A stretch of DNA of 31,564 nucleotides, taken from the sequence record NC_070902.1; one strand, 5' to 3'. The stretch comes from Escherichia phage 11W. The position numbers and the translations under genes are program-made. This document shows positions 1,223 through 31,142 of this stretch, piece after piece (the first letter of the stretch is position 1; each line of letters opens with the position of its first letter). Below the pieces are notes generated by a model. It did not search any database, was not told the origin of the DNA, and saw only the letters and a program-made list of their open reading frames with translations.

Positions 1223-2994
1223 CAGTAAAACTCCAGAATGGTGGATGTCAGCGGGGTGCTGATACCGGCGGTGAGTGGCTCATTTAACAGGGCGTGCATG
1301 GTCGCCCAGGCGAGGTCGGCGTGGCTGGCTTCCTCGCTGCGACTGGCCTCATAGGTGGCGCTGCGTCCGCTGCTGGTCATGGTCTTTCGGATAGCCATAA
1401 ACGAGCTGGTGATGTCGGTGGCGCTGACGTCATATTCCAGACAGCCACGGCGGATAACGTCTTTTGCCTTGAGCACCATTGCGGTTTTCATTTCCGGTGT
1501 GTAGCGGATATCGCGCGCGGCGGGATAGAACGAGCGCACGAGCTGGAACACGCCGACACCGAGGCCGGTGGCATCAATACCGATGTATTCGACGTTGTAT
1601 TTTTCGGTGAGTTTGCGGATGGATTCCGCCTGAGTGGCAAAGTCCATGCCTTTCCACTGGTGACGCTCAAGTATTCTGAATTTGCCACCGGCCACCACCG
1701 GTGGTGCCAGCACCACGCATCCGGCGCTGTCGCCACGGTGTGACGGGTCGTAACCAATCCATACCGGGCGGGAGCCGAACGGATTGGCGGCAAACGGCGC
1801 ATAGTCTTCCCATTCTTCCAGCGTGTCGACCATGCAGCGTTGCAGCTCCTCGAACGGGAACACCGACGCCTTGTCGTCAACAAATTCACACATGAACAGG
1901 TTTTTAAAATCGTCGGCGCTGTTTTCGCGTTTGAGCTGTTCAATGTCGAACAGCGTGCAGCCGCCTTTCAGGGCGTCCTCAATGGTGACAATCTGCCGCC
2001 ACTGGCCGTCCGCACAGAGAAGCCCACCGGCAAGGGCGTTATGACTGACGTCGATTTCCACGCGTTCGGCGGCGCTGGCGCGTCCCCGGTTGAACAGTTC
2101 ACCTGACCAGAACGGGTAGGCGTCGTGCGCCAGCGTGGACGGGGTGGAGAAATAGGTCGAGCGCAGGTGACTCTGTGAGGCCATACCTGATGCCACCTTA
2201 CGCAGTACCTGAAAATTCGGGATCCAGAAAATCTCATCGACGTACAGGTCGCCGTTATGGCTCTGTGCGGTGTTGGAGTTGGTGCCGAGAAAAATCAGTT
2301 TTGCACCGTTATTGCCCAGGACAATCGGGTCACCGGTCAGGTCAACGTCAACCAGCCGGGCAAAGGCAATGATGTATTCGCGGAACACATACGCCTGCGT
2401 TTTACTGGCCGACAGAAAAATCTGGTTATGACCGGTTTTCAGGGCGCGCAGCAGCGCCTCGCGGGAAAAATAAAACGTCGCGCCAATCTGGCGGGATTTC
2501 AGGATATCGCGGATGCGGTGCTCAAGCCCGGCGCGATACCAGTGCAACTGATAGTCGAAAGACTGCTCAAAGAAAATCTGCTCCAGCTTTTCGATGGCCT
2601 CGTCACTGAAAAAATTCTTTTTCGGTTTGCGCCGCCCGCTTTTGTTGCGGTTAGCGACGTTCGGATTAAGGTCTGCCTCGCTGCCGGTCTGGCTGTAACG
2701 ATTTACCCGTGCCAGTCGTTCAATCTGGCGTCCCAGCAGGTCAATTTCCTTGAAGTCACCGCCGGTTTTCTGCGGTTTGATGATGAGCTGGGTCAGCCGC
2801 GCTTCCAGGCTCATTTCGACACGGCTGATGGGGGCAACGTTGTCCCAGCCGTCGCGCTGTTTCCAGCTCTGCACTGTCGGGCGTTTCATCTGCAACATGG
2901 CGGCAATCTGCGGCACGGAAAACCCCTGCCAGTACAGCAGCGCCGCCTGACGACGCGGGTCGTGTAAAAGAGTGGTGTCTGTGGTGATGGTCAT
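1222..2994 (-). CDS. P: Terminase large (ATPase) subunit (P2 gpP)
   Basis: Track ORF is 600 aa from a TTG. The first in-frame ATG (MTITTDTTLLHDPRRQAALLYWQGF) gives 590 aa, matching P2 P as I recall it. Confidence 0.93.
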   Translation of the reverse strand: MTITTDTTLLHDPRRQAALLYWQGFSVPQIAAMLQMKRPTVQSWKQRDGWDNVAPISRVEMSLEARLTQLIIKPQKTGGDFKEIDLLGRQIERLARVNRYSQTGSEADLNPNVANRNKSGRRKPKKNFFSDEAIEKLEQIFFEQSFDYQLHWYRAGLEHRIRDILKSRQIGATFYFSREALLRALKTGHNQIFLSASKTQAYVFREYIIAFARLVDVDLTGDPIVLGNNGAKLIFLGTNSNTAQSHNGDLYVDEIFWIPNFQVLRKVASGMASQSHLRSTYFSTPSTLAHDAYPFWSGELFNRGRASAAERVEIDVSHNALAGGLLCADGQWRQIVTIEDALKGGCTLFDIEQLKRENSADDFKNLFMCEFVDDKASVFPFEELQRCMVDTLEEWEDYAPFAANPFGSRPVWIGYDPSHRGDSAGCVVLAPPVVAGGKFRILERHQWKGMDFATQAESIRKLTEKYNVEYIGIDATGLGVGVFQLVRSFYPAARDIRYTPEMKTAMVLKAKDVIRRGCLEYDVSATDITSSFMAIRKTMTSSGRSATYEASRSEEASHADLAWATMHALLNEPLTAGISTPLTSTILEFY

Positions 2995-3167
2995 GAATAC
3001 CTCGCCGTGATGAATACACGGCAAGGCTACTGAGTCGCGCCCCGCGATTCGCTAAGGTGCTGTTGTGTCAGTGATAAGCCATCCGGGACTGATGGCGGAG
3101 GATGCGCATCGTCGGGAAACTGATGCCGACATGTGACTCCTCTAATCACTATTCAGGACTCCTGACA
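2995..3167. promoter_or_regulatory. Divergent late promoter region (P_P leftward, P_O rightward), expected Ogr-dependent
   Basis: Intergenic region between divergent P and O. P2 late promoters lie here and carry an upstream TGT-N12-ACA-like element. I could not pin an exact dyad by eye. Confidence 0.5.
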
Positions 3168-9368: not shown

Positions 9369-9434
9369 TTGTGCCATTCCCGACACCTCATCGTTACATT
9401 GCCGCCGGTATGACCCGGCGGCATCCTTCCCGTT
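9369..9434 (+). promoter_or_regulatory. Putative late promoter P_V region
   Basis: 66-bp intergenic gap before V. Contains tgt-N12-acc at about 9370..9387, a partial match to the Ogr-site consensus. Placement by analogy to P2. Confidence 0.4.
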
Positions 9435-10070
9435 ATGAACACTCTCGCAAATATCCAGGAACTCGCGCGCGCACTGCGCAACATGATCCGCACCGGCCTT
9501 GTCGTCGAAACCAACCTTAAAGCCGGTCGCTGCCGTGTGCAGACCGGCGGCATGTGCACCGACTGGCTTCAGTGGCTGACCTGTCGTGCCGGGCGTTCGC
9601 GCACATGGTGGGCACCTTCCGTGGGGGAACAGGTGCTGATTCTGGCCGTGGGCGGTGAACTCGACACGGCGTTCGTTCTGCCGGGGATTTATTCCGGCGA
9701 TAACCCTGCGCCGTCTGCGTCGGCGGATGCACTGCATATCCGTTTTCCTGACGGGGCGGTGATTGAGTATGAACCCGAAACCAGTGCACTCACGGTAAGC
9801 GGAATTAAAACGGCCAGCGTAACGGCTTCTGATTCTGTTACCGCCACGGTGCCGGTGGTCATGGTGAAAGCATCAACCCGCGTCACCCTGGACACACCGG
9901 AGGTGGTCTGCACCAACAGGCTGATTACCGGCACGCTGGAAGTGCAGAAGGGCGGGACGATGCGCGGCAACATTGAACACACCGGCGGTGAACTCTCATC
10001 AAACGGTAAGGTACTGCATACCCATAAACACCCCGGCGACAGCGGCGGCACAACCGGGAGTCCTCTATGA
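9435..10070 (+). CDS. V: Baseplate central spike (P2 gpV)
   Basis: 211 aa, same as P2 V. Confidence 0.9.
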   Translation: MNTLANIQELARALRNMIRTGLVVETNLKAGRCRVQTGGMCTDWLQWLTCRAGRSRTWWAPSVGEQVLILAVGGELDTAFVLPGIYSGDNPAPSASADALHIRFPDGAVIEYEPETSALTVSGIKTASVTASDSVTATVPVVMVKASTRVTLDTPEVVCTNRLITGTLEVQKGGTMRGNIEHTGGELSSNGKVLHTHKHPGDSGGTTGSPL

Positions 10071-11860: not shown

Positions 11861-14620
11861 ATGAGCACGAAATTTAAAACCGTTATCACTACTGCCGGAG
11901 CCGCAAAGCTGGCAGCCGCCACTGTCCCCGGCGGGNAAAAAGTAAACCTGTCTGCAATGGCCGTGGGTGACGGTAATGGCAAATTGCCGGTGCCGGATGC
12001 CGGTCAGACGAAACTGGTGCATGAGGTCTGGCGTCACGCTCTGAATAAAGTCAGCGTGGATAATAAGAATAAAAACTATATCGTGGCTGAACTGGTGGTA
12101 CCGCCAGAAGTGGGCGGCTTCTGGATGCGTGAACTTGGTCTGTATGACGATGCCGGAACACTGATTGCGGTCGCCAACATGGCAGAAAGCTATAAGCCTG
12201 AACTGGCTGAAGGCTCCGGACGTGCGCAGACCTGCCGCATGGTCATTATTGTCAGTAACGTGGCATCCGTTGAGCTGAGTATTGATGCCAGCACAGTGAT
12301 GGCGACGCAGGATTACGTCGATGACAAAATCGCAGAGCATGAGCAGTCCCGTCGCCATCCTGACGCCACGCTGACAGAAAAAGGTTTTACTCAGTTAAGC
12401 AGTGCAACAAACAGCACCAGTGAAAAGCTGGCAGCAACGCCAAAGGCAGTAAAAGCAGCCTATGACAATGCTGAAAAACGTATGCAGAAAGACCAGAACG
12501 GTGGCGATATTCCAGATAAGGGCGCTTTTCTGGACAATGTTGGCGTTACCAGCCTGACGTTTATGAAAAACAATGGCGAAATGCCGCTTGATGCTGACCT
12601 GAATACATTTGGTCCCGTTAAGGCTTATCTGGGGATCTGGTCTAAAGCTACCTCAACTAACGCAACACTGGAGAAAAATTTCCCGGAAGATAATGCTGTC
12701 GGTGTGCTTGAGGTTTTTGCTGCCGGCAATTTTGCAGGTACGCAACGCTTTACCACAAGAGACGGCAATGTATACATGCGTAAACTCGCCAATAAGTGGA
12801 ATGGCACTGATGGTCCGTGGGGCGTATGGCGTCACACTCAATCAGCTACCCGCCCTTTGAGTACGACTATAGACCTGAATACGCTTGGAGCCGCCGAACA
12901 TCTTGGTTTATGGCGTAACAGTAGCTCGGCTATAGCTTCATATGAACGCAATTATCCAGAGGAAGGCGGCTTTGCTCAGGGGACGCTTGAGATCCTCGAA
13001 GGCGGGAATTATGGAAGAACGCAACGTTATACCACTCGCCGTGGAAATATGTACGTCCGCTGCCTTGCGGCAAGCTGGGATGCATCAAATCCGCAGTGGG
13101 AACCGTGGTTAAGAGTCGGTCATCAGTCAGAGAGTCGTTATTACGACGGGGATTTGAATGATGTGACTTCACCAGGTATTTACAGCGTTACAGGTAAAGC
13201 GACCAACGGTCCAGTACTGGACGGAAACGGCGTGACAGTCCTCGGTATTCTGGAAGTGTTGAGGCGCTTTGATGGTGTTAACGTATGGCAGCGTTATACA
13301 ACTGCCGGAACAGGTACAACCCTTAAAGGTCGCACGTTTGAGCGTGTTTTTACCGGCAGCTCATGGAGCGAATGGCGGGAAGTTTACACATCTTATTCAC
13401 TTCCCCTGAATCTGGGCATCGGTGGCGCAGTGGCAAAACTATCCAGTCTGGACTGGCAGACCTACGACTTTGTACCGGGTAGTCTGATAACCGTTCGGCT
13501 TGATAATATGACCAACATTCCCGACGGTATGGACTGGGGCGTCATTGATGGCAACCTGATAAACATCTCAGTCGGTCCGAGTGATGATTCTGGTTCGGGA
13601 CGCTCGATGCATGTATGGCGCAGCACTGTAAGTAAGGCCAACTACCGCTTTTTTATGGTGCGTATTTCAGGAAATCCGGGAAGCCGCACGATCACAGCAA
13701 GACGAGTACCAATCATTGACGAAGCCCAGACATGGGGCGCGAAACAGACATTCAGTGCTGGCCTTTCTGGTGAACTGTCCGGCAATGCGGCGACAGCAAC
13801 AAAGCTGAAAACAGCCCGTAAAATTAATAACGTTTCGTTTGATGGAACATCAGATATTAACCTGACGCCGAAAAATATTGGTGCATTTGCTTCAGGAAAA
13901 ACAGGAGACACCGTTGCGAATGATAAAGCCGTTGGGTGGAACTGGAGTAGCGGAGCCTATAACGCAACTACTGGTGGGGCATCAACGTTAATTCTTCATT
14001 TTAATATCGGTGAAGGAAGTTGTCCCGCCGCCCAGTTCCGCGTTAATTATAAGAACGGCGGTATTTTTTATCGTTCTGCTCGTGACGGTTACGGATTCGA
14101 GGCTGACTGGTCTGAGTTTTATACCACAACGCGAAAACCTACAGCGGGAGATGTCGGTGCACTGCCGTTATCTGGTGGTCAATTGAATGGTGCTCTGGGT
14201 ATAGGAACATCCAGTGCTCTTGGCGGTAATTCGATTGTTTTGGGTGATAATGACACGGGCTTTAAACAAAATGGTGATGGTAATCTGGATGTTTATGCTA
14301 ATAGCGTCCATATTATGCGCTTTGTCTCGGGAAGTATTCAAAGTAATAAAACCATAAATATTACGGGGCGTGTTAATCCCTCGGATTACGGTAACTTTGA
14401 TTCCCGCTATGTCCGGGATATCCGGCTTGGTGGTGCTGCCACATACAAACCTGCGAACAATGGCATGACATGGACACATCAGGCACCGTCCGGGTGTGTA
14501 TATTCCGGCATTATTGTTCAGGATACCGGCTCAAACTCTGCCGATAACATTGGTGGTGTATATTACAGACCGGTTCAGAAATACATTAACGGGACATGGT
14601 ATAACGTGGCGCAGGTATAA
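11861..14620 (+). CDS. H: Tail fibre protein (P2 gpH homologue, extended)
   Basis: 919 aa. N-terminal part is P2 H-like (MSTKFKTVITTAGAAKLAAATVPGG). The middle carries three tandem repeats and the C-terminus is distinct. One ambiguous base at 11936. Confidence 0.88.
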   Translation: MSTKFKTVITTAGAAKLAAATVPGGXKVNLSAMAVGDGNGKLPVPDAGQTKLVHEVWRHALNKVSVDNKNKNYIVAELVVPPEVGGFWMRELGLYDDAGTLIAVANMAESYKPELAEGSGRAQTCRMVIIVSNVASVELSIDASTVMATQDYVDDKIAEHEQSRRHPDATLTEKGFTQLSSATNSTSEKLAATPKAVKAAYDNAEKRMQKDQNGGDIPDKGAFLDNVGVTSLTFMKNNGEMPLDADLNTFGPVKAYLGIWSKATSTNATLEKNFPEDNAVGVLEVFAAGNFAGTQRFTTRDGNVYMRKLANKWNGTDGPWGVWRHTQSATRPLSTTIDLNTLGAAEHLGLWRNSSSAIASYERNYPEEGGFAQGTLEILEGGNYGRTQRYTTRRGNMYVRCLAASWDASNPQWEPWLRVGHQSESRYYDGDLNDVTSPGIYSVTGKATNGPVLDGNGVTVLGILEVLRRFDGVNVWQRYTTAGTGTTLKGRTFERVFTGSSWSEWREVYTSYSLPLNLGIGGAVAKLSSLDWQTYDFVPGSLITVRLDNMTNIPDGMDWGVIDGNLINISVGPSDDSGSGRSMHVWRSTVSKANYRFFMVRISGNPGSRTITARRVPIIDEAQTWGAKQTFSAGLSGELSGNAATATKLKTARKINNVSFDGTSDINLTPKNIGAFASGKTGDTVANDKAVGWNWSSGAYNATTGGASTLILHFNIGEGSCPAAQFRVNYKNGGIFYRSARDGYGFEADWSEFYTTTRKPTAGDVGALPLSGGQLNGALGIGTSSALGGNSIVLGDNDTGFKQNGDGNLDVYANSVHIMRFVSGSIQSNKTINITGRVNPSDYGNFDSRYVRDIRLGGAATYKPANNGMTWTHQAPSGCVYSGIIVQDTGSNSADNIGGVYYRPVQKYINGTWYNVAQV
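12584..13395 (+). repeat. Three tandem ~90-95-aa protein-level repeats inside the tail fibre gene
   Basis: Repeat units contain DLNT.G...G.W...G.LE.......G.QR(F/Y)TTR.GN.Y.R......W....W..W. Visible at 12584, 12856 and 13138. Diverged at the nucleotide level. Confidence 0.65.
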
Positions 14621-14623
14621 TTT

Positions 14624-15151
14624 ATGCAGCATTTAAAAAATATTACGGCGGGTAATCCAAAAACGGTTGAACAATATCAATTGACAAAGGACTTTGATGT
14701 TGTCTGGNTTTTTTCAGAAGATGGTAAGAACTGGTACGAAGAACAAAAGTATTTTGCTGATGACACGATAAAAATAGCGTACGACAAAGATAATATTATC
14801 CGCTATGTGGAAAAGGATGTGACAGCTATCAGACCGGATGGATTAAGTGTTGTTGAAGTGGCGGATATTACTACTAACCGACGGGCGGACATTTCAGGGG
14901 GCTGGATGTTTAAGGACGGCAAAGTGATTAAACGCATTTATACGGCAGAGGAATTGCTGCAGCAGGCAGAAAACCGGAAAGCCAGACTTCTTGCAGATGC
15001 TGAATCCGTGATTTTGCCGCTGGAGCGCGCGGTCAGACTGAACATGGCAACAGATGAGGAGCGTAGCCGACTGGAAGCATGGGAACGCTACAGCGTTCTG
15101 GTCAGTCGTGTGGAGCCTGCAAATCCTAAATGGCCGGAAATGCCGCAATAA
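14624..15151 (+). CDS. G: Tail fibre assembly chaperone (P2 gpG)
   Basis: 175 aa, immediately after H. Ambiguous base at 14708. Confidence 0.88.
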
Positions 15152-16609
15152 GTTGTATGAGCTTACATATCTATTGCGTAGAGTAAAGCATAATCTGACA
15201 GTCCGCTCTGTGCCAGAAGCNGANNNTAGCAGGTGCCAGATGCATCTGTTATTCTTCATTGAATTGAGCAGTATCCTTAACAGGAACTCTGAATACATAA
15301 ATGAAGATGAAAAACATGTCTGAAGTGTTGACCCAAGAAAAGCTTATTTTTGTTGCTNNCCAGAGACTAANNNNACTNNNGAAGNNNNNGANNTATTNNN
15401 NNTTTGANATNAAGGNNCGNTNTGTTNACNAAGCNNCGNNNNAAANANATTNNNCTGGNNNGCTNAGTTCGCAGTTTGATNNTNGCNGCAATGNTTTGTT
15501 TCATGTATCGGAAANNATATNNNNNNNTTTATNCTGCGNAATNATCGTATTCTGATGNTGNAANNNNGAGGCTGCAGATGGANNNNNNNNANTANNNGTC
15601 AGANNGACTAANACTNTTGGGAGTNTGNNATCGNTNNNNAATNTTCACNGCCATNCNCGCTNNTNACTTTTNNTGNNTNNCAANNNNNNGNATNTNTTNN
15701 NNCTNTGANGAANNNNNNNNNNNNNNNNNNNNNNNNNGTNANTCGNNGCTGATTTTNTTGATNTCAACGAGCCTNNNNTNTGNNCCNTNAATTGTCNNNN
15801 NNAANNATTANNNGNGCCTNGNNAGCAGATTGCTGTCANCCTGAGAGTAGCGNAAGGTGATGAAAAAACATGNGTTTGATTANCTTTCTTCTGCAACCAT
15901 TAAGGAATGGCAATGATATTCAACGCTAAGGNTGTTNTTATTCGATATGGACNNNNNNNNNNNGNNNNNNANNNNNNNNNNNNNNNACGCNNTTTATTNN
16001 NNNCNNNNNNTGANGNAAANCNNNNNAATNNNCNTNANTNGNNAGNGNNTNAAATCAACACGACAGAAGGCGTTACNGAAGNTNAAAAGNGNNGNNNNNN
16101 ACTNTTATCAAAACTGCCACCGGATAGCTGGNCACTTGNCANTTNNNNNGGCAGNANNNNNNNNGAANACNNNNNATGAAAGNGNNTAATCTNNCNAANN
16201 NNNNGCTTNAACNCNATAGNAATGGTGTGTGNNCAGAAGATGTAATGANNGNAAAACCAAGNNNNGAGGNTTACATCNAANNNTTGNTNANNCTGNTGAA
16301 TGCGTGGTATTNNNNNNNNNNNNNNNNNNNNNNNNNNNNNNNNNNNNNNNNNNNNNNNNNATCNNNNGAAGCCCATGNCGTCAGCGAACTGTCTGACATT
16401 ATGGTCAAGATTTCCGNAGAACGTTTCANATNNANTNNNATNTGATNTNTGGTTAATCACGTTACACAATACGCATCAATGGACGCTGAGTAGTTCGCGA
16501 GTTTTAAACTTCCAACGTCCGCTTTTCGCTCCAAGCAGACTGTCAGATTTGATAGCGTTTTGGCTATGTAAATTGTCAGTCGGAAAATGAGTGAATACAA
16601 ATCAGGACA
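15152..16609. other. Variable cargo hotspot at the P2 Z/fun position; AT-rich and heavily N-masked, content unresolved
   Basis: About 1.46 kb between G and the terminator before FI. Dense interspersed N from about 15360 to 16445. Readable plus-strand fragments (MKMKNMSEVLTQEKLIFVA at 15301; MAMIFNAK at 15907; EAH.VSELSDIMVKIS.ERF near 16370) are not recognisable to me. Confidence 0.6.
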
Positions 16610-23374: not shown

Positions 23375-23551
23375 TCAATGTGGTCAATGTGTGGACGTGA
23401 CCAGAAATAAATCCTTTTATTTCACGTGATTAGATATCAAAAAATGTCACCAATAACTGACTTGGTAGCCCCCGCCGTAGCGGTATTTTCTGTTGTATTA
23501 CAATTAGTTAAATTACTCATATCGCTTCAATTGGCTCTAGTTAACTCTGGT
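23375..23551. other. attP: attP region (core not identified)
   Basis: Lies between ogr and the int 3' end, as in P2. Tandem gtcaatgtg x2 at 23375..23392 and tgtggacg at 23391..23398. I could not find the remembered P2 core sequence. Confidence 0.5.
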
Positions 23552-24547
23552 TTATGGACGCATTATGGACATTCCTGACACCGGGTTAAGAGTCACAGCA
23601 TCTTGTAAGAAATCCGGTGCAAAGTGTGCGTAGGTCATAGTTTGCTGAATGTTAGAATGACCCAGGATGCGCTGCAATGTGATTATGTTACCTCCATTCA
23701 TTATAAAATGTGTGGCAAATGTATGCCTCAAAACATGTACTGCTTGTCCGTCAGGTAAATCGGGTTTTACTTCCCTGAGAGCGTTACGCACTTTGTAGTA
23801 ACTGGCATTAAAAAGCCTGCCTGAATTTTTGGTCTTGATCCGTTTAATCAGGTCCTGCGAAACGGGAATTGTCCTGCGTTTTCCGTTTTTAGTTTTCATA
23901 AACGTAACCATCTGGTTAATGATGTGTTCAGCTTTTAAATTAGACACTTCACTCCAGCGTCCACCAGTAGAAAGGCAGACCAGAGTTGCATTTAATTCAT
24001 CACCATCAAGCATGGATAACAGCCGCGTAATCTCTTCACTGGACAAAAAAGCCATTTCCGTAACAGCTTCACGTAACCGTTTAATCTCACGGAACGGGTT
24101 GTGGGAGTGGTATTCACCGGCGTCAATTAACTTGGTGAACATCCCGCTCATTATTGCCAGATGTCGATTTACGCTGGCTGGTTTTAGACCATCGTTCATC
24201 ATTACAACGCGATAATCAGTTATCGTTTTCTTTGTTAGCTGGTCAGCTCTGGACACTCCCATTTCTGCAAATTTGGCGATTATTGTCGTTAAACGCCCCC
24301 GTTCAATATCTCCACGCTCATGTGATTTTCCGTGATATATCCACCATCTACCTAACAACTCTGTAAGAGTTCGGCGGTCGGCTGGTTTCTCCAACCACTC
24401 TTTGTTGTGGTAGTTAACCAATACATGACGTTCGAATGCCTGAGCTTCACCTTTAGTTTTAAATTTCCGCCTGATACGTTTTCCATCTGCACCCTGCGGT
24501 CTGACGTCCACTTCATAACGACCATCATCGAGCTTTTTAATAGACAT
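23552..24547 (-). CDS. int: Tyrosine integrase
   Basis: 331 aa. C-terminal catalytic region HVLRHTFATHFIMNGGNIITLQRILGHSNIQQTMTYAHF (R, H-x-x-R, Y). Confidence 0.93.
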   Translation of the reverse strand: MSIKKLDDGRYEVDVRPQGADGKRIRRKFKTKGEAQAFERHVLVNYHNKEWLEKPADRRTLTELLGRWWIYHGKSHERGDIERGRLTTIIAKFAEMGVSRADQLTKKTITDYRVVMMNDGLKPASVNRHLAIMSGMFTKLIDAGEYHSHNPFREIKRLREAVTEMAFLSSEEITRLLSMLDGDELNATLVCLSTGGRWSEVSNLKAEHIINQMVTFMKTKNGKRRTIPVSQDLIKRIKTKNSGRLFNASYYKVRNALREVKPDLPDGQAVHVLRHTFATHFIMNGGNIITLQRILGHSNIQQTMTYAHFAPDFLQDAVTLNPVSGMSIMRP

Positions 24548-24640
24548 AAAGCCCTCCGATGACGCTGTTTACTTCTACTACTTGAAAATTAATGCAATTT
24601 TCTTTCGTACATTTACTACACACATATGCTGAATAAATCG

Positions 24641-24940
24641 TCAGCCAGTCTTCTGGTCTGAGTGGTGCAAGGTTGTTGAGTCTTGCCCAATGTGTGCGAG
24701 AGCCGGGGCTATTTGTCCAGCTGCTGGATCTGTTTCATCAAACATGAACCAGTCACGATACTTGCGAAAGCGTGGATGCTTAAACAGCTTCATACCTGCT
24801 TCCATAGGCATTTTTGATTTTCCTGATTCATATCCATGATATGTGTAGTAATTAATTCCAATTAATTCAGCAAGTTCCTTAGTTTTAAGGCGTTCGGATT
24901 CACGGATGAGCTTTAGTTTCTCACTTTGTTCACTTGACAT
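24641..24940 (-). CDS. C: Immunity repressor C (P2 C-like, divergent N-terminal half)
   Basis: 99 aa from the ATG at 24940 (track ORF starts at a TTG at 24958). C-terminus GQIAPALAHIGQ...HSDQKTG resembles remembered P2 C; N-terminal half differs. Confidence 0.8.
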   Translation of the reverse strand: MSSEQSEKLKLIRESERLKTKELAELIGINYYTYHGYESGKSKMPMEAGMKLFKHPRFRKYRDWFMFDETDPAAGQIAPALAHIGQDSTTLHHSDQKTG

Positions 24941-25033
24941 AATTTTGCTAATCTCCAATTATATTGCTACTTGGCAATTTGTGATTCACTCAAAAAGGCT
25001 CTAGATGGCTCCAGTTGGTGAATCGCAAATCTT
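24941..25033. promoter_or_regulatory. Divergent Pc/Pe promoter-operator region of the lysis-lysogeny switch
   Basis: 93-bp gap between divergent C and cox. Direct-repeat-like elements tttgtgattcac and ttggtgaatcgc. Confidence 0.55.
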
Positions 25034-25405
25034 ATGGAGGATAGCAAAGTGACGACAAATGTAGAAATTTCTTGTCCAACTAGCGATGAGGCAAGTTTCG
25101 AAAATGAAGCCAAACGTAAAAGCATTCAGATTTCAGAGCGCCCATCTGATTTGCTGTCGAAAGAAGGTTTTGCTCTTTACATCGGTAAGACACCACGCGC
25201 GGTGGCTGAAATGGCTAAAGCAGGAAAGCTGCCAGCCTTCTACATGACAGACCCATTAAAACCAAGAGGGAAAGCTGAATTATGGATTAATCGCCGTGAG
25301 TGGGACAAGTACGCAGCCCAACTGGTTGATGAAGCTCCGACAGAATGGCATGACTGGAAAAATCGCATTAGTTACAGCAAATCAAGACATGGCCGTGCGG
25401 CTTAA
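25034..25405 (+). CDS. cox: Cox-like excisionase / early-promoter repressor (longer than P2 Cox)
   Basis: Resembles remembered P2 Cox in the stretch FALYIGKTPRAVAEMAKAGKLPAFYMTDP. 123 aa from the ATG; a GTG at 25049 has a better GGAGG RBS and gives 118 aa. Confidence 0.6.
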   Translation: MEDSKVTTNVEISCPTSDEASFENEAKRKSIQISERPSDLLSKEGFALYIGKTPRAVAEMAKAGKLPAFYMTDPLKPRGKAELWINRREWDKYAAQLVDEAPTEWHDWKNRISYSKSRHGRAA

Positions 25406-25415
25406 GGTGGAAAGT

Positions 25416-25586
25416 ATGAATGAGCCTCGTTGTATTGCTCAGTTACTGCGTAACGAAAGCCCCAGGGCGATTGACTTCACCATCACCCACGGTAAGGGGC
25501 GTAAGGGAATCATTATCCGCACCAAAAAACAGAGTCCGTTAAAAAAGGCTCTGACCTTTCTGAAAAGCCGGAGGGTATGGAAATGA
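25416..25586 (+). CDS. Small early hypothetical protein
   Basis: 56 aa from the ATG at 25416, preceded by AAGGTGG. Basic and K/R-rich. Track ORF (25296..) overlaps cox and is probably over-extended. Confidence 0.45.
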   Translation: MNEPRCIAQLLRNESPRAIDFTITHGKGRKGIIIRTKKQSPLKKALTFLKSRRVWK

Positions 25587-26083
25587 CAGTGATGACGCTC
25601 AATCTCGTTGAAAAACAGCCAGCAGCTATGCGCCGGATAATTGGTAAGCATCTTGCCGTTCCTCGCTGGCAGGATACATGTGATTATTATAATCAGATGA
25701 TGGAGCGCGAACGGCTAACAGTTTGCTTTCATGCGCAGTTAAAACAGCGTCACGCAACGATGCGTTTTGAAGAAATGAACGACGTCGAACGTGAACGACT
25801 GGTATGTGCAATTGATGAATTGCGTGGGGCATTCTCAAAACGTCGTCAGGTCGGTGCAAGTGAGTATGCATATATTAGTTTTTTAACAGTCAGTCAGCGT
25901 CGTACTTTATTTATGCATGCCGGATTGACTGAAAAAGAATTTAACCAGCCATACTGGCGAATTAATGAAGAGTCATGTTACTGGCGTGATGCTTTATTCC
26001 GTGCATTACGTGAATTATTCAGCCTGTTTGAGTATGCACCGACAATTCTGACGTCGGTAAAACCAGAGCAATATCTGCATTAA
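25583..26083 (+). CDS. B: Replication protein B (P2 gpB)
   Basis: 166 aa from the ATG at 25583 (MTVMTLNLVEKQPAAMRRIIGKHLAVPRWQDTCDYYNQMMERE), with GAGGG 7 nt upstream. Confidence 0.88.
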   Translation: MTVMTLNLVEKQPAAMRRIIGKHLAVPRWQDTCDYYNQMMERERLTVCFHAQLKQRHATMRFEEMNDVERERLVCAIDELRGAFSKRRQVGASEYAYISFLTVSQRRTLFMHAGLTEKEFNQPYWRINEESCYWRDALFRALRELFSLFEYAPTILTSVKPEQYLH

Positions 26084-29520: not shown

Positions 29521-29553
29521 GGCGTCTTTAAAATTGGTTAAAAGGTGTGTTGT

Positions 29554-30042
29554 ATGGATGGTTTATGGGAAAAAATATCGTCTTATAATATATTTAACAA
29601 TCTCTTTCCCGGTGCTTTGTTTATTTATTTGTTTGAGCGGGCAACCAATGTGATATTATCCACAGATGATGTTGTTAAGAATGTGGTACTTTACTATTTT
29701 ACGGGGATAATTATCGGAAGGATTGGGTCTATTGTTTTTGAGCCTGTGTTGAAATTTTTGGGGCTGGTAAAATTTGTTCCATATGAGGAATATATCTCAG
29801 CATGTAGAAAGGATAATAAAATAGAGCTTCTTCAAGAAACTGCAAATATGTATAGGACGTTATTCTCTATGTCCTTGGTTTTTTTGTTTTCTTTGTTTTT
29901 TGTTTCGTTTGTAGTTGGTGGTGATTACATGGCGTCGAAATGGATTTCATTGTTTTTGATTTTTGTTTTTATTGTGTCGTACGTTAAGCAAATTAAGTTT
30001 ATTACATTAAGAGTGAGTAAGGCTAATAATAAGCTGCCCTAA
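29554..30042 (+). CDS. Small multi-pass membrane protein, unknown function (hotspot cargo, tin position)
   Basis: 162 aa from the ATG at 29554 (AAAGG RBS). About four hydrophobic segments (FPGALFIYLF; VVLYYFTGIIIGRIGSIVF; LFSMSLVFLFSLFFVSFVVGG; WISLFLIFVFIVSYV). AT-rich codons. Confidence 0.6.
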   Translation: MDGLWEKISSYNIFNNLFPGALFIYLFERATNVILSTDDVVKNVVLYYFTGIIIGRIGSIVFEPVLKFLGLVKFVPYEEYISACRKDNKIELLQETANMYRTLFSMSLVFLFSLFFVSFVVGGDYMASKWISLFLIFVFIVSYVKQIKFITLRVSKANNKLP

Positions 30043-30050
30043 GGCAGCTT
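30031..30050. terminator. Hairpin between convergent hotspot genes (candidate bidirectional terminator)
   Basis: Perfect 8-bp stem aagctgcc/ggcagctt with loop ctaa, overlapping the stop of the membrane-protein gene and 7 nt from the MBL gene stop. Confidence 0.5.
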
Positions 30051-30056
30051 AACGAA

Positions 30057-31142
30057 TTATTCTTCAGTCTTATAACTCCTTGCGTATGAGCGTGGGGTGA
30101 CTGCAGTCCAGCCATCTCTGGCGGGGGCATTACTAGAATGGCGTTTATTGGTGCCTTCTGTGGCGACTACTTTGGCTCCACGCCTTGTAAAAGCATTAAT
30201 GACCGCTTGATGAGGGTGTTTATCGGAATCCGGTGCGCATGATATAAATGCACAAACACCACTTCTTCCTCCTTCGCTTACAATATTTCCAACGAGCTTA
30301 TTTAGCACCGCTGGACCGATGTTTCTCCTGCTTCCATGGTGGGGCACTTGAATAAATGATAATGAGTTATTATTTATATGATCAGCAGCCATATCTAATG
30401 CAGTTATTCCTGCATCACCTGTAAATACTAGTGTTTTATTGTCAATTTCAATTTTTAATATAACGCTTGAATTGTTTTGTGCAGTAGTTGTGTCCTTGTC
30501 ATCAATTCCCTCATCAGAGAACCAATCAGCAATATACTCGACTTGTTCTTTGGCTTTCTCAAAAAAGTAGTTATATGCATCTGTACCACTGGTTGCAGTT
30601 GTTTCTGCTTTTTCAGGCATTCTTGCAAAATCGGGGATTAATGTTTCATAGTATGCTTGTGTTGGTCCAATAACAACCAGTTTAGAATTGTCCCAAGTCC
30701 TGCCTTGAAAAGGCTCCTTAATTTCTATTCCTTTTTTTTTCGCTGATTTGACGGCATCATAGGCTTTTTGTAGATTATCTTGTATACGTCTGGCAATACT
30801 TGCATCTGTTATCCTTCCATCAGCAAATTCCTGCGCGAGATTTTCATTATGCTCCCAAGGCTGGTGAATCCAGAACTCTTTGACTTCCGCATTCTCAATC
30901 ACATGCTCAAGGCCGCCAGCATGGTCGCTATCTGGATGCGTGGATATGAGTAAGTCAATAGTATTTGTATGATAGTATTTCTGTAAATGTTCAATTATTT
31001 GTGGACCAGTGCTTGCGTACCCCGCATCAATTACGACAACTTTTTGCTCTGCTCTTGTTCCGTGGAGGTTGCCCCATCTTATGCAGATAGCATCTCCACT
31101 TTTTTTTTCTCCAACTGCTAAGAAATCAACTTCGTAACCCAT
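30057..31142 (-). CDS. Metallo-beta-lactamase-fold hydrolase, putative nuclease (hotspot cargo, old position)
   Basis: 361 aa. MBL-fold motifs VVVIDAGY, THPDSDHAGG (variant of THxHxDHxGG), TGDAG and VPHHGSRRN. AT-rich. Not part of the P2 backbone as I know it. Confidence 0.7.
   Translation of the reverse strand: MGYEVDFLAVGEKKSGDAICIRWGNLHGTRAEQKVVVIDAGYASTGPQIIEHLQKYYHTNTIDLLISTHPDSDHAGGLEHVIENAEVKEFWIHQPWEHNENLAQEFADGRITDASIARRIQDNLQKAYDAVKSAKKKGIEIKEPFQGRTWDNSKLVVIGPTQAYYETLIPDFARMPEKAETTATSGTDAYNYFFEKAKEQVEYIADWFSDEGIDDKDTTTAQNNSSVILKIEIDNKTLVFTGDAGITALDMAADHINNNSLSFIQVPHHGSRRNIGPAVLNKLVGNIVSEGGRSGVCAFISCAPDSDKHPHQAVINAFTRRGAKVVATEGTNKRHSSNAPARDGWTAVTPRSYARSYKTEE

Follow-up and report, generated by a model that had tools for sequence, protein, structure and literature searches.

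The int-C-cox region of Escherichia phage 11W: a P2-type switch with a divergent repressor, Cox protein and attachment site

Does the repressor region of Escherichia phage 11W specify the immunity of P2, or does a P2-like phage carry here a switch of another specificity, and if so, how did it get there? P2-like coliphages, with structural genes more than 96% identical, fall into seven immunity classes, I-VII as defined by Karlsson et al. 2006, and three more were proposed later. The window analyzed here is the whole 31,564-nt stretch of DNA in record NC_070902.1. It spans, from cos to cos, the complete genome of a P2-like phage (Peduovirus), and its base 1 aligns with base 2 of P2 (AF063097). 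The region in question holds a leftward 99-aa ORF (24641-24940), a spacer of about 100-110 bp and a rightward ORF (25034-25405); downstream of this latter gene, cox, follow homologs of P2 orf78, B, orf80-83 and A, in that sequence. A sequence-only reading had seen in it an immunity region of P2-type architecture and divergent sequence, produced by mosaic exchange of the switch and distinct from P2 in immunity specificity.

We consider it very probable that the region is a functional P2-type lysis/lysogeny switch and recombination module of a heteroimmune class other than P2, which recombined into a P2-like backbone via conserved flanks. The mechanism as a whole is drawn by homology with P2. 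Within the frame set by the observed homology, architecture, breakpoints, conserved promoter and box elements and integration site, we infer the bases contacted by C and Cox, the position of Pc and heteroimmunity itself.

Limits of the replaced cassette

Head, tail and replication genes of 11W are 94-98% identical to those of P2 (blastn against AF063097). Toward the switch, blastn identity is 94% up to 23424, which corresponds to P2 24342 and lies inside attP directly left of the core. Similarity returns at 25402, 4 bases short of the cox stop, with 97% identity from there on. Between these edges lies a replaced cassette of 1,977 bp (23425-25401) with only two weak P2 matches of 66-70% (blastn), in int and in the 3′ end of C. 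This divergence from P2 is far beyond chance or drift, and the proposed combination of P2-type architecture and divergent sequence is borne out. The cassette comprises the attP core, Cox boxes, P′ arm, int, C, operator spacer and cox, exactly the content of the co-adapted ‘regulatory region’ as defined in Nilsson et al. 2011 (PMC3448106). Because identity breaks abruptly at 23424/23425 and 25401/25402, mosaic exchange is supported. The exchanged unit, however, is the whole attP-int-C-cox module and thus larger than the switch region to which the exchange had been ascribed. Since attP core, Cox boxes, P′ arm and int all lie within the swapped unit, the integration specificity was changed too.

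Could the region instead have diverged from P2 in place, by point mutations under diversifying selection and without any cassette exchange? The residual 66-70% DNA similarity in int and the C 3′ end does show common ancestry, and many small mutational changes may also yield new regions (PMC3448106). Divergence in place would, however, hardly account for edges at which, on either side, an identity of 94-98% gives way within a few bases to DNA that no longer aligns, nor for a cassette that recurs almost unchanged in otherwise differing backbones. It does so in the isolated phages P24E6b, D8, 12W, pro483 and Yersinia phage vB_YpM_46, with 98.7-99.6% DNA identity over 24400-25700, 100% identity in C and small differences in the backbone. 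P24E6b, D8 and 12W are 97% identical end to end over the right half of the window. Together with the sister phages and the Klebsiella phage discussed below, this makes divergence in place highly improbable, and we retain recombination of a module into the P2-like backbone.

Other loci of the genome depart from P2 as well. Hundreds of N bases are scattered over 15220-16450, at the Z/fun place of P2, and the window is without P2 similarity from 15224 to 16512; a consensus that was masked or ambiguous across a polymorphic accessory (‘moron’) locus would look like this. P2 orf30 is missing near 9370-9435, where homology skips from P2 9369 to 10308. At 12466-16513, G and the distal part of the tail-fiber gene H match P2 at 75-81% or not at all; from sequence, this suggests a different host-range module. 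Finally, two genes at 29545-31142 stand in place of P2 orf91, tin and old. The first (29545-30042, plus strand) encodes a membrane-like protein of 165 aa that matches PADLOC PDC-M48A (E 7e-49). The second (30057-31142, minus strand) encodes a metallo-beta-lactamase-fold protein of 361 aa that matches PDC-M48B (E 6e-99), with a weaker LmuA-like match. They form a candidate anti-phage defense pair in a known P2 hotspot.

The C repressor, the early promoter and the predicted operator

The C immunity repressor is encoded on the minus strand at 24641-24940 and comprises 99 aa from its ATG, the length given in the sequence-only reading; its ORF extends upstream to a TTG at 24958. C is a full-length homolog of P2 C and aligns with it ungapped (50/99 = 50.5% identity, E 2e-35). 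It also matches the P2 C structures 2XCJ/2L49 over residues 1-99 with an E value of 1e-25 (phmmer); Pfam HTH_19 and HTH_3 scored below their cut-offs on it. Residues 75-83 read GQIAPALAH, and GQIAPALA is the conserved C-terminal motif of P2 C-type repressors, located ahead of a flexible tail (PMC3448106). With a length of about 100 aa, full-length homology and this motif, 11W C belongs to the P2 C-type repressor family.

The C-terminal half of C had been described as shared with P2 and the N-terminal half as different. Qualitatively this holds, but against P2 the identity follows a gradient with no clean split, from 45% in residues 1-49 to 56% in residues 50-99 and 76% in the last 25 residues. 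The contrast is sharp only in comparison with the sister phages pro147 and vB_YpM_117, where residues 58-99 are 98% identical and residues 1-57 65-67%. A less conserved N-terminal half has been noted for C before and was ascribed to pressure toward an immunity of its own (PMC2995052). Of the four P2 residues said to contact bases (PMC2995052), 11W C retains Y31 and differs in the other three (S35H, Y36G, R41K). Within immunity groups of P2-like phages, C identity is at least 95% (PMC3448106). P2 class I combines such identity with the same operator, and 11W, with 50.5% C identity and without the P2 half-site GTTTAGAT at Pe, falls outside it. It likewise falls outside class III of Wphi (at least 95% C identity, TATTGGTGAC half-sites 34 bp apart), with a C identity of 45% and no such TATTGGTGAC repeat in the window spacer.

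At C codon 67 (24742-24740), the Thr of P2 is replaced by Phe in 11W. In P2, the sos mutation T67I renders C insensitive to the P4 epsilon antirepressor (PMC2995052), and one may therefore speculate that the 11W class might respond differently to satellite P4.

The early promoter Pe (TTGACA, 17 bp, AATTAT; 24934-24962, plus strand) scored 10/12 in a promoter scan. Its -35 element (24934-24939) overlaps the C start codon, as annotated in P2, and its -10 element lies at 24957-24962. We aligned this region with seven heteroimmune relatives, comprising E. coli, Yersinia-propagated, Citrobacter, Pectobacterium, Rahnella and Scandinavium phages. The -35 is invariant and the -10 conserved among them; the bases between and just after these elements vary. 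At the variable positions sits the best direct repeat found in the window spacer, ATTTTGCTAA (24942-24951) and ATATTGCTAC (24961-24970), with 8/10 matching bases of the form (A)T(T/A)TTGCTA. The copies are spaced 19 bp center to center on the plus strand and flank the Pe -10, and we predict them to be the C operator. As positive controls, the same search recovered the published half-sites of P2 (22-bp) and Wphi (34-bp) (PMC2995052). A search for GTTTAGAT with up to 2 mismatches found nothing in the Pe part of the spacer and near matches only elsewhere, at 24911 and 24999. In pro147, a different direct repeat, TGTYGTAT, occupies the same columns with the same 19-bp spacing. A 6-mer direct repeat in a spacer of ~100 bp is roughly the chance expectation. 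Since the repeat is thus short enough for chance, and some relatives (vB_YpM_117 and the Citrobacter and Rahnella examples) have no clear direct repeat, the C operator stays a prediction. We also weighed a third TTGCTA copy, inverted and located at 25043-25048, as a further operator but rejected it, because vB_YpM_117 has the same GAGGATAGCAAA before cox and nevertheless different operators.

Repressors of the P2 C type recognize half-sites at Pe that are direct repeats and non-palindromic. By homology with P2, C would bind as a helix-turn-helix dimer to two direct half-sites (~TTGCTA, spaced 19 bp) on either side of the -10 of the rightward Pe. Binding would switch off cox and the replication genes, and immunity would act only against phages with the same operators. 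The operator repeats had been suspected to differ from those of P2, in agreement with the absence of GTTTAGAT at Pe and with a candidate TTGCTA repeat at 19 bp instead of 22 bp. In pairwise alignment, C and the operator region thus are not essentially identical to P2. The 50.5% C identity, the three changed contact residues and the missing P2 half-site give good support, at the level of sequence, to an immunity specificity distinct from P2.

Cox, its predicted sites and the attachment site

For cox, two forms are found in public annotation, a 123-aa product from ATG 25034 and a 118-aa product from GTG 25049 (25049-25405, plus strand). ATG 25034 lacks a ribosome-binding site, and relatives do not conserve it. 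The 118-aa form is the more likely one, because GTG 25049 aligns with the relatives’ ATG and is preceded by GGAGGA at 25037-25042. We thus assume that cox probably starts at GTG 25049 and that its start is probably mis-called in many records, with 123 instead of 118 aa. With either start, the protein is longer than P2 Cox (91 aa), as had been stated. Its conservation only around the putative helix-turn-helix was recognized correctly as well: identity to P2 Cox is ~32-35%, and the 35% match, 71 residues long (38-107 in the 123-aa product), does not reach beyond the winged-helix domain.

The Pfam profile Phage_Cox (PF10743) matches residues 26-106 with 101.2 bits against a cut-off of 27.5 and covers profile positions 2-87 of 87. 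An AF2 model with 59 homologs as input is confident for residues ~30-105, with pLDDT values of ~89-96 (10-residue block means) for residues 31-90 and below 50 for residues 1-22. The modeled fold consists of a strand, two helices, two strands and then helices, and its best PDB match is 4LHF, P2 Cox (E 1.7e-5, target-normalized TM-score 0.68). A profile score above the gathering score and a winged helix-turn-helix with C-terminal helices both place the protein in the Cox family. The model predicts a winged-helix domain preceded by a disordered N-terminal tail, which is hypervariable in sequence.

This tail touches on the question of whether the switch might have decayed or lost its function, with the long cox ORF as an annotation artifact. 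The unconserved ATG 25034 without a ribosome-binding site and the predicted disorder of the first ~22 Cox residues could be read in this way. A remnant would be at odds, however, with ORFs that are all intact in a window that is a cos-to-cos genome, and with an identical C in the plaque-forming or induced phages pro483, P24E6b, vB_YpM_46, D8 and 12W. Moreover, the reading frame of the Cox N-terminal extension stays open, at a similar length, across 59 diverse homologs, and a good ribosome-binding site precedes GTG 25049. We hence find a remnant scarcely credible and continue with a functional switch.

Cox boxes can be predicted at both the switch and attP from position, phasing and conservation. 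Within the right half of the spacer, a single block is conserved in 7/7 relatives, namely GGCTCTAGAT GGCTCCAGTT (24997-25016, plus strand), with 10-bp phasing in the presumed Pc region. Three closely related 10-bp phased repeats, CGCTTCAATT GGCTCTAGTT AACTCTGGTT (23523-23552, plus strand), lie between the attP core and the P′ arm, the position of the Cox site in P2 attP. These attP boxes are conserved in relatives and vary in step with the switch copy. In the Pectobacterium/Rahnella lineage, switch and att copies share the variant CTAA(G/A)T(G/A)GTGC, and in 4/5 phages the switch module is most similar to the phage’s own att module. Yersinia phage vB_YenM_42.18 and a Klebsiella phage have an unrelated or P2-like short Cox and were uninformative on box conservation, but they do attest to independent assortment of C and Cox. 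Genome-wide, the motif is not enriched, with 8 occurrences of a loose pattern versus 3.8 expected and 18 versus 15.6 expected when one mismatch is allowed. In analogy to P2, Cox would oligomerize on the 10-bp phased boxes. In the right half of the spacer this would turn off the leftward C/int promoter Pc, and on the matching boxes between core and P′ arm it would direct excision.

At the P2-equivalent position, no convincing sigma-70 Pc was found, the best candidate being TTGCGA, 17 bp, TCTAGA. Another minus-strand promoter, ATCACA, 16 bp, TATAAT (24985-24958), scored 10/12 in the promoter scan, and its TATAAT, which overlaps the Pe -10, is the sole strong minus-strand -10. It was rejected as Pc because it is the complement of the AT-rich Pe -10, because its -35 lacks conservation and because its transcript would begin downstream of the C ribosome-binding site. 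The switch boxes are also flanked by a 13-nt inverted repeat, ATTTGTGATTCAC (24977-24989) and GTGAATCGCAAAT (25018-25030), 92% complementary, which is class-specific since it is not conserved in pro147 or vB_YpM_117.

The int gene (23552-24547, minus strand) encodes a tyrosine integrase of 331 aa that is 53% identical to P2 Int and contains Pfam Int_N and Phage_integrase. As in P2, attP is ordered P arm, core, Cox boxes, P′ arm. The P arm consists of TGTGGTCA and TGTGGACG (23379-23397, plus strand), direct Int arm-type sites 11 bp apart that match the arm consensus tgTGGaCa (PMC3448106), and lies left of the breakpoint in DNA still common to P2. The P′ arm, TATGGACG and TATGGACA (23553-23571, plus strand), also 11 bp apart, overlaps the int 3′ end and is conserved as (T/C)(A/G)TGGAC in relatives. 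The 13-nt core ACCAATAACTGAC (23449-23461, plus strand) is identical to the 5′ end of E. coli pflA, with an exact match to MG1655 951066-951078. In E24377A, the prophage int adjoins pflA, and relatives in four other genera adjoin a radical-SAM gene in the same arrangement. The integration specificity is pflA instead of the locI of P2, and Int would target the pflA 5′ end. The P2-type Int class with the PhiD145 site is marked by TGTGGACA-like arm repeats and by an attB at position 950293 of MG1655 (old numbering), and both features were found. With an offset between MG1655 versions that we take to be 776 bp, this position becomes ~951069 in NC_000913.3, within the core at 951066-951078. MG1655 950293 (old numbering) is the site of PhiD145 and PhiD160 (PMC3448106, Table 1).

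In E24377A, pflA (2324-3121 of the piece) is annotated with 798 bp versus 741 bp in MG1655 and extends by 57 nt into prophage DNA. Integration therefore swaps the first codons and the upstream region of pflA for phage sequence.

Nested exchange and known immunity classes

Inside the cassette, comparison with pro147 and vB_YpM_117, elsewhere 90-100% identical, delimits a nested hypervariable ‘immunity-specificity’ segment of ~410 bp (24740-25150), which spans C codons 1-~67, the spacer and Cox codons 1-~35. Sliding identity to these phages is 34-78% within ~24740-25150, versus 94-100% left of 24740 (int and C 3′ end) and ~76-100% to the right through the remaining cox. The Cox proteins mirror this, with DNA-binding domains 95-98% identical and N-terminal tails 25-36%. 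Judged from these alignments, the variable core is made up of the DNA-binding half of the repressor, its predicted operators and the cox 5′ end, and pro147 and vB_YpM_117 presumably are heteroimmune to 11W. The attP of pro147 is the same as in 11W, with 98-100% identity from ~23450. vB_YpM_117 is alignable through int only from ~23800; its int 3′ end and attP do not align. The int of vB_YpM_117 is annotated shorter, with a divergent 3′ end, and this phage has two extra small ORFs between cox and orf78 (2211-2576 of the piece).

At least three sister C types share the 11W-type int. In a Klebsiella phage, a C protein 62% identical to 11W C is paired with a near-P2 short Cox, from which it follows that C and Cox assort independently. 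This pairing, like the sister phages that share int and cox at 94-100% and differ sharply in the 410-bp core, argues against divergence in place. Exchange of a segment of ~400 bp with the repressor DNA-binding half and the operators would thus create new immunity types within the module. New immunity classes are said, in the abstract of Karlsson 2006, to arise via homologous recombination in the switch. PMC3448106, with reference to Karlsson 2006, reports recombination inside the regulatory region.

Between sister classes, the Cox N-terminal tail (~25-35 aa) changes along with the operators and the N-terminus of C. We may speculate that it carries a class-specific function rather than being a passive recombination hitch-hiker. 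As protein, it could for example modulate Cox oligomerization or contact C; as DNA, the cox 5′ coding region could hold extra class-specific operator or Pc elements. Such a function seems distinctly improbable to us.

Is the cassette a never-described immunity class, none of classes I-X? The three or more sister C types that share int leave room for this, as does a pflA site for which only two phages, PhiD145 and PhiD160, are listed. In contrast, 352 of 5,426 complete E. coli genomes (~6%) match over at least 80% of the 1.3-kb region. With 19 ECOR prophages and 13 phages in the 2006 survey (PMC1904263), a type this common was likely sampled. As the attachment site matches PhiD145/PhiD160 in addition (PMC3448106, Table 1), we consider an undescribed class unlikely. 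C, Cox and Int are each found in identical form on at least 1000 contigs; the names of their clusters are generic labels only, with no PhiD145/PhiD160 name among them. UTI89 prophage PhiECO5 (class IX) was rejected as an identity for the cassette, having a 113-aa C and a 173-aa Cox and adjoining dmsA.

The cassette is an already known, very common, sequenced phage type, and our analysis re-describes a published phenomenon, since heteroimmune P2 classes of this pattern are in the literature (PMC3448106, PMC2995052, PMC1904263, PMC1904268). Nothing here will surprise the specialist. We add, modestly, the base-level limits of the cassette, the nested 410-bp segment, the probable GTG start of cox and the predicted half-sites and Cox boxes, which are testable targets for a class present in ~6% of complete E. 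coli genomes. For annotation, 11W integrates at pflA, not at locI, and by its sequence would neither be excluded by P2 lysogens nor exclude P2. The phage makes a textbook case of P2-like coliphages as a near-invariant structural backbone with interchangeable int-C-cox modules.

Compared with known systems, 11W resembles P2 (class I) in gene order and orientation, in a C of 99 aa, in a Pe -35 over the C start, in a spacer of ~110 bp, in predicted C half-sites that flank the Pe -10, in a Cox of the Phage_Cox family and in the attP layout. It differs from P2 in the sequences of C (50.5% identical), Cox (~32-35%) and Int (53%), and in the predicted half-site, ~TTGCTA at 19 bp compared with GTTTAGAT at 22 bp. 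The predicted Cox boxes, ~GCTCYAGWT, differ from TTAAA(G/C)NC(A/C) in P2; 11W Cox has an N-terminal tail of ~25-30 aa; and attB is pflA instead of locI. With the P2-like coliphages PhiD145 and PhiD160 (Karlsson 2006; Mandali 2010), 11W has in common the pflA integration site, a likeness at the level of the attachment site. Its long Cox also fits the second group of larger Cox proteins, ‘group 2’, described in PMC3448106.
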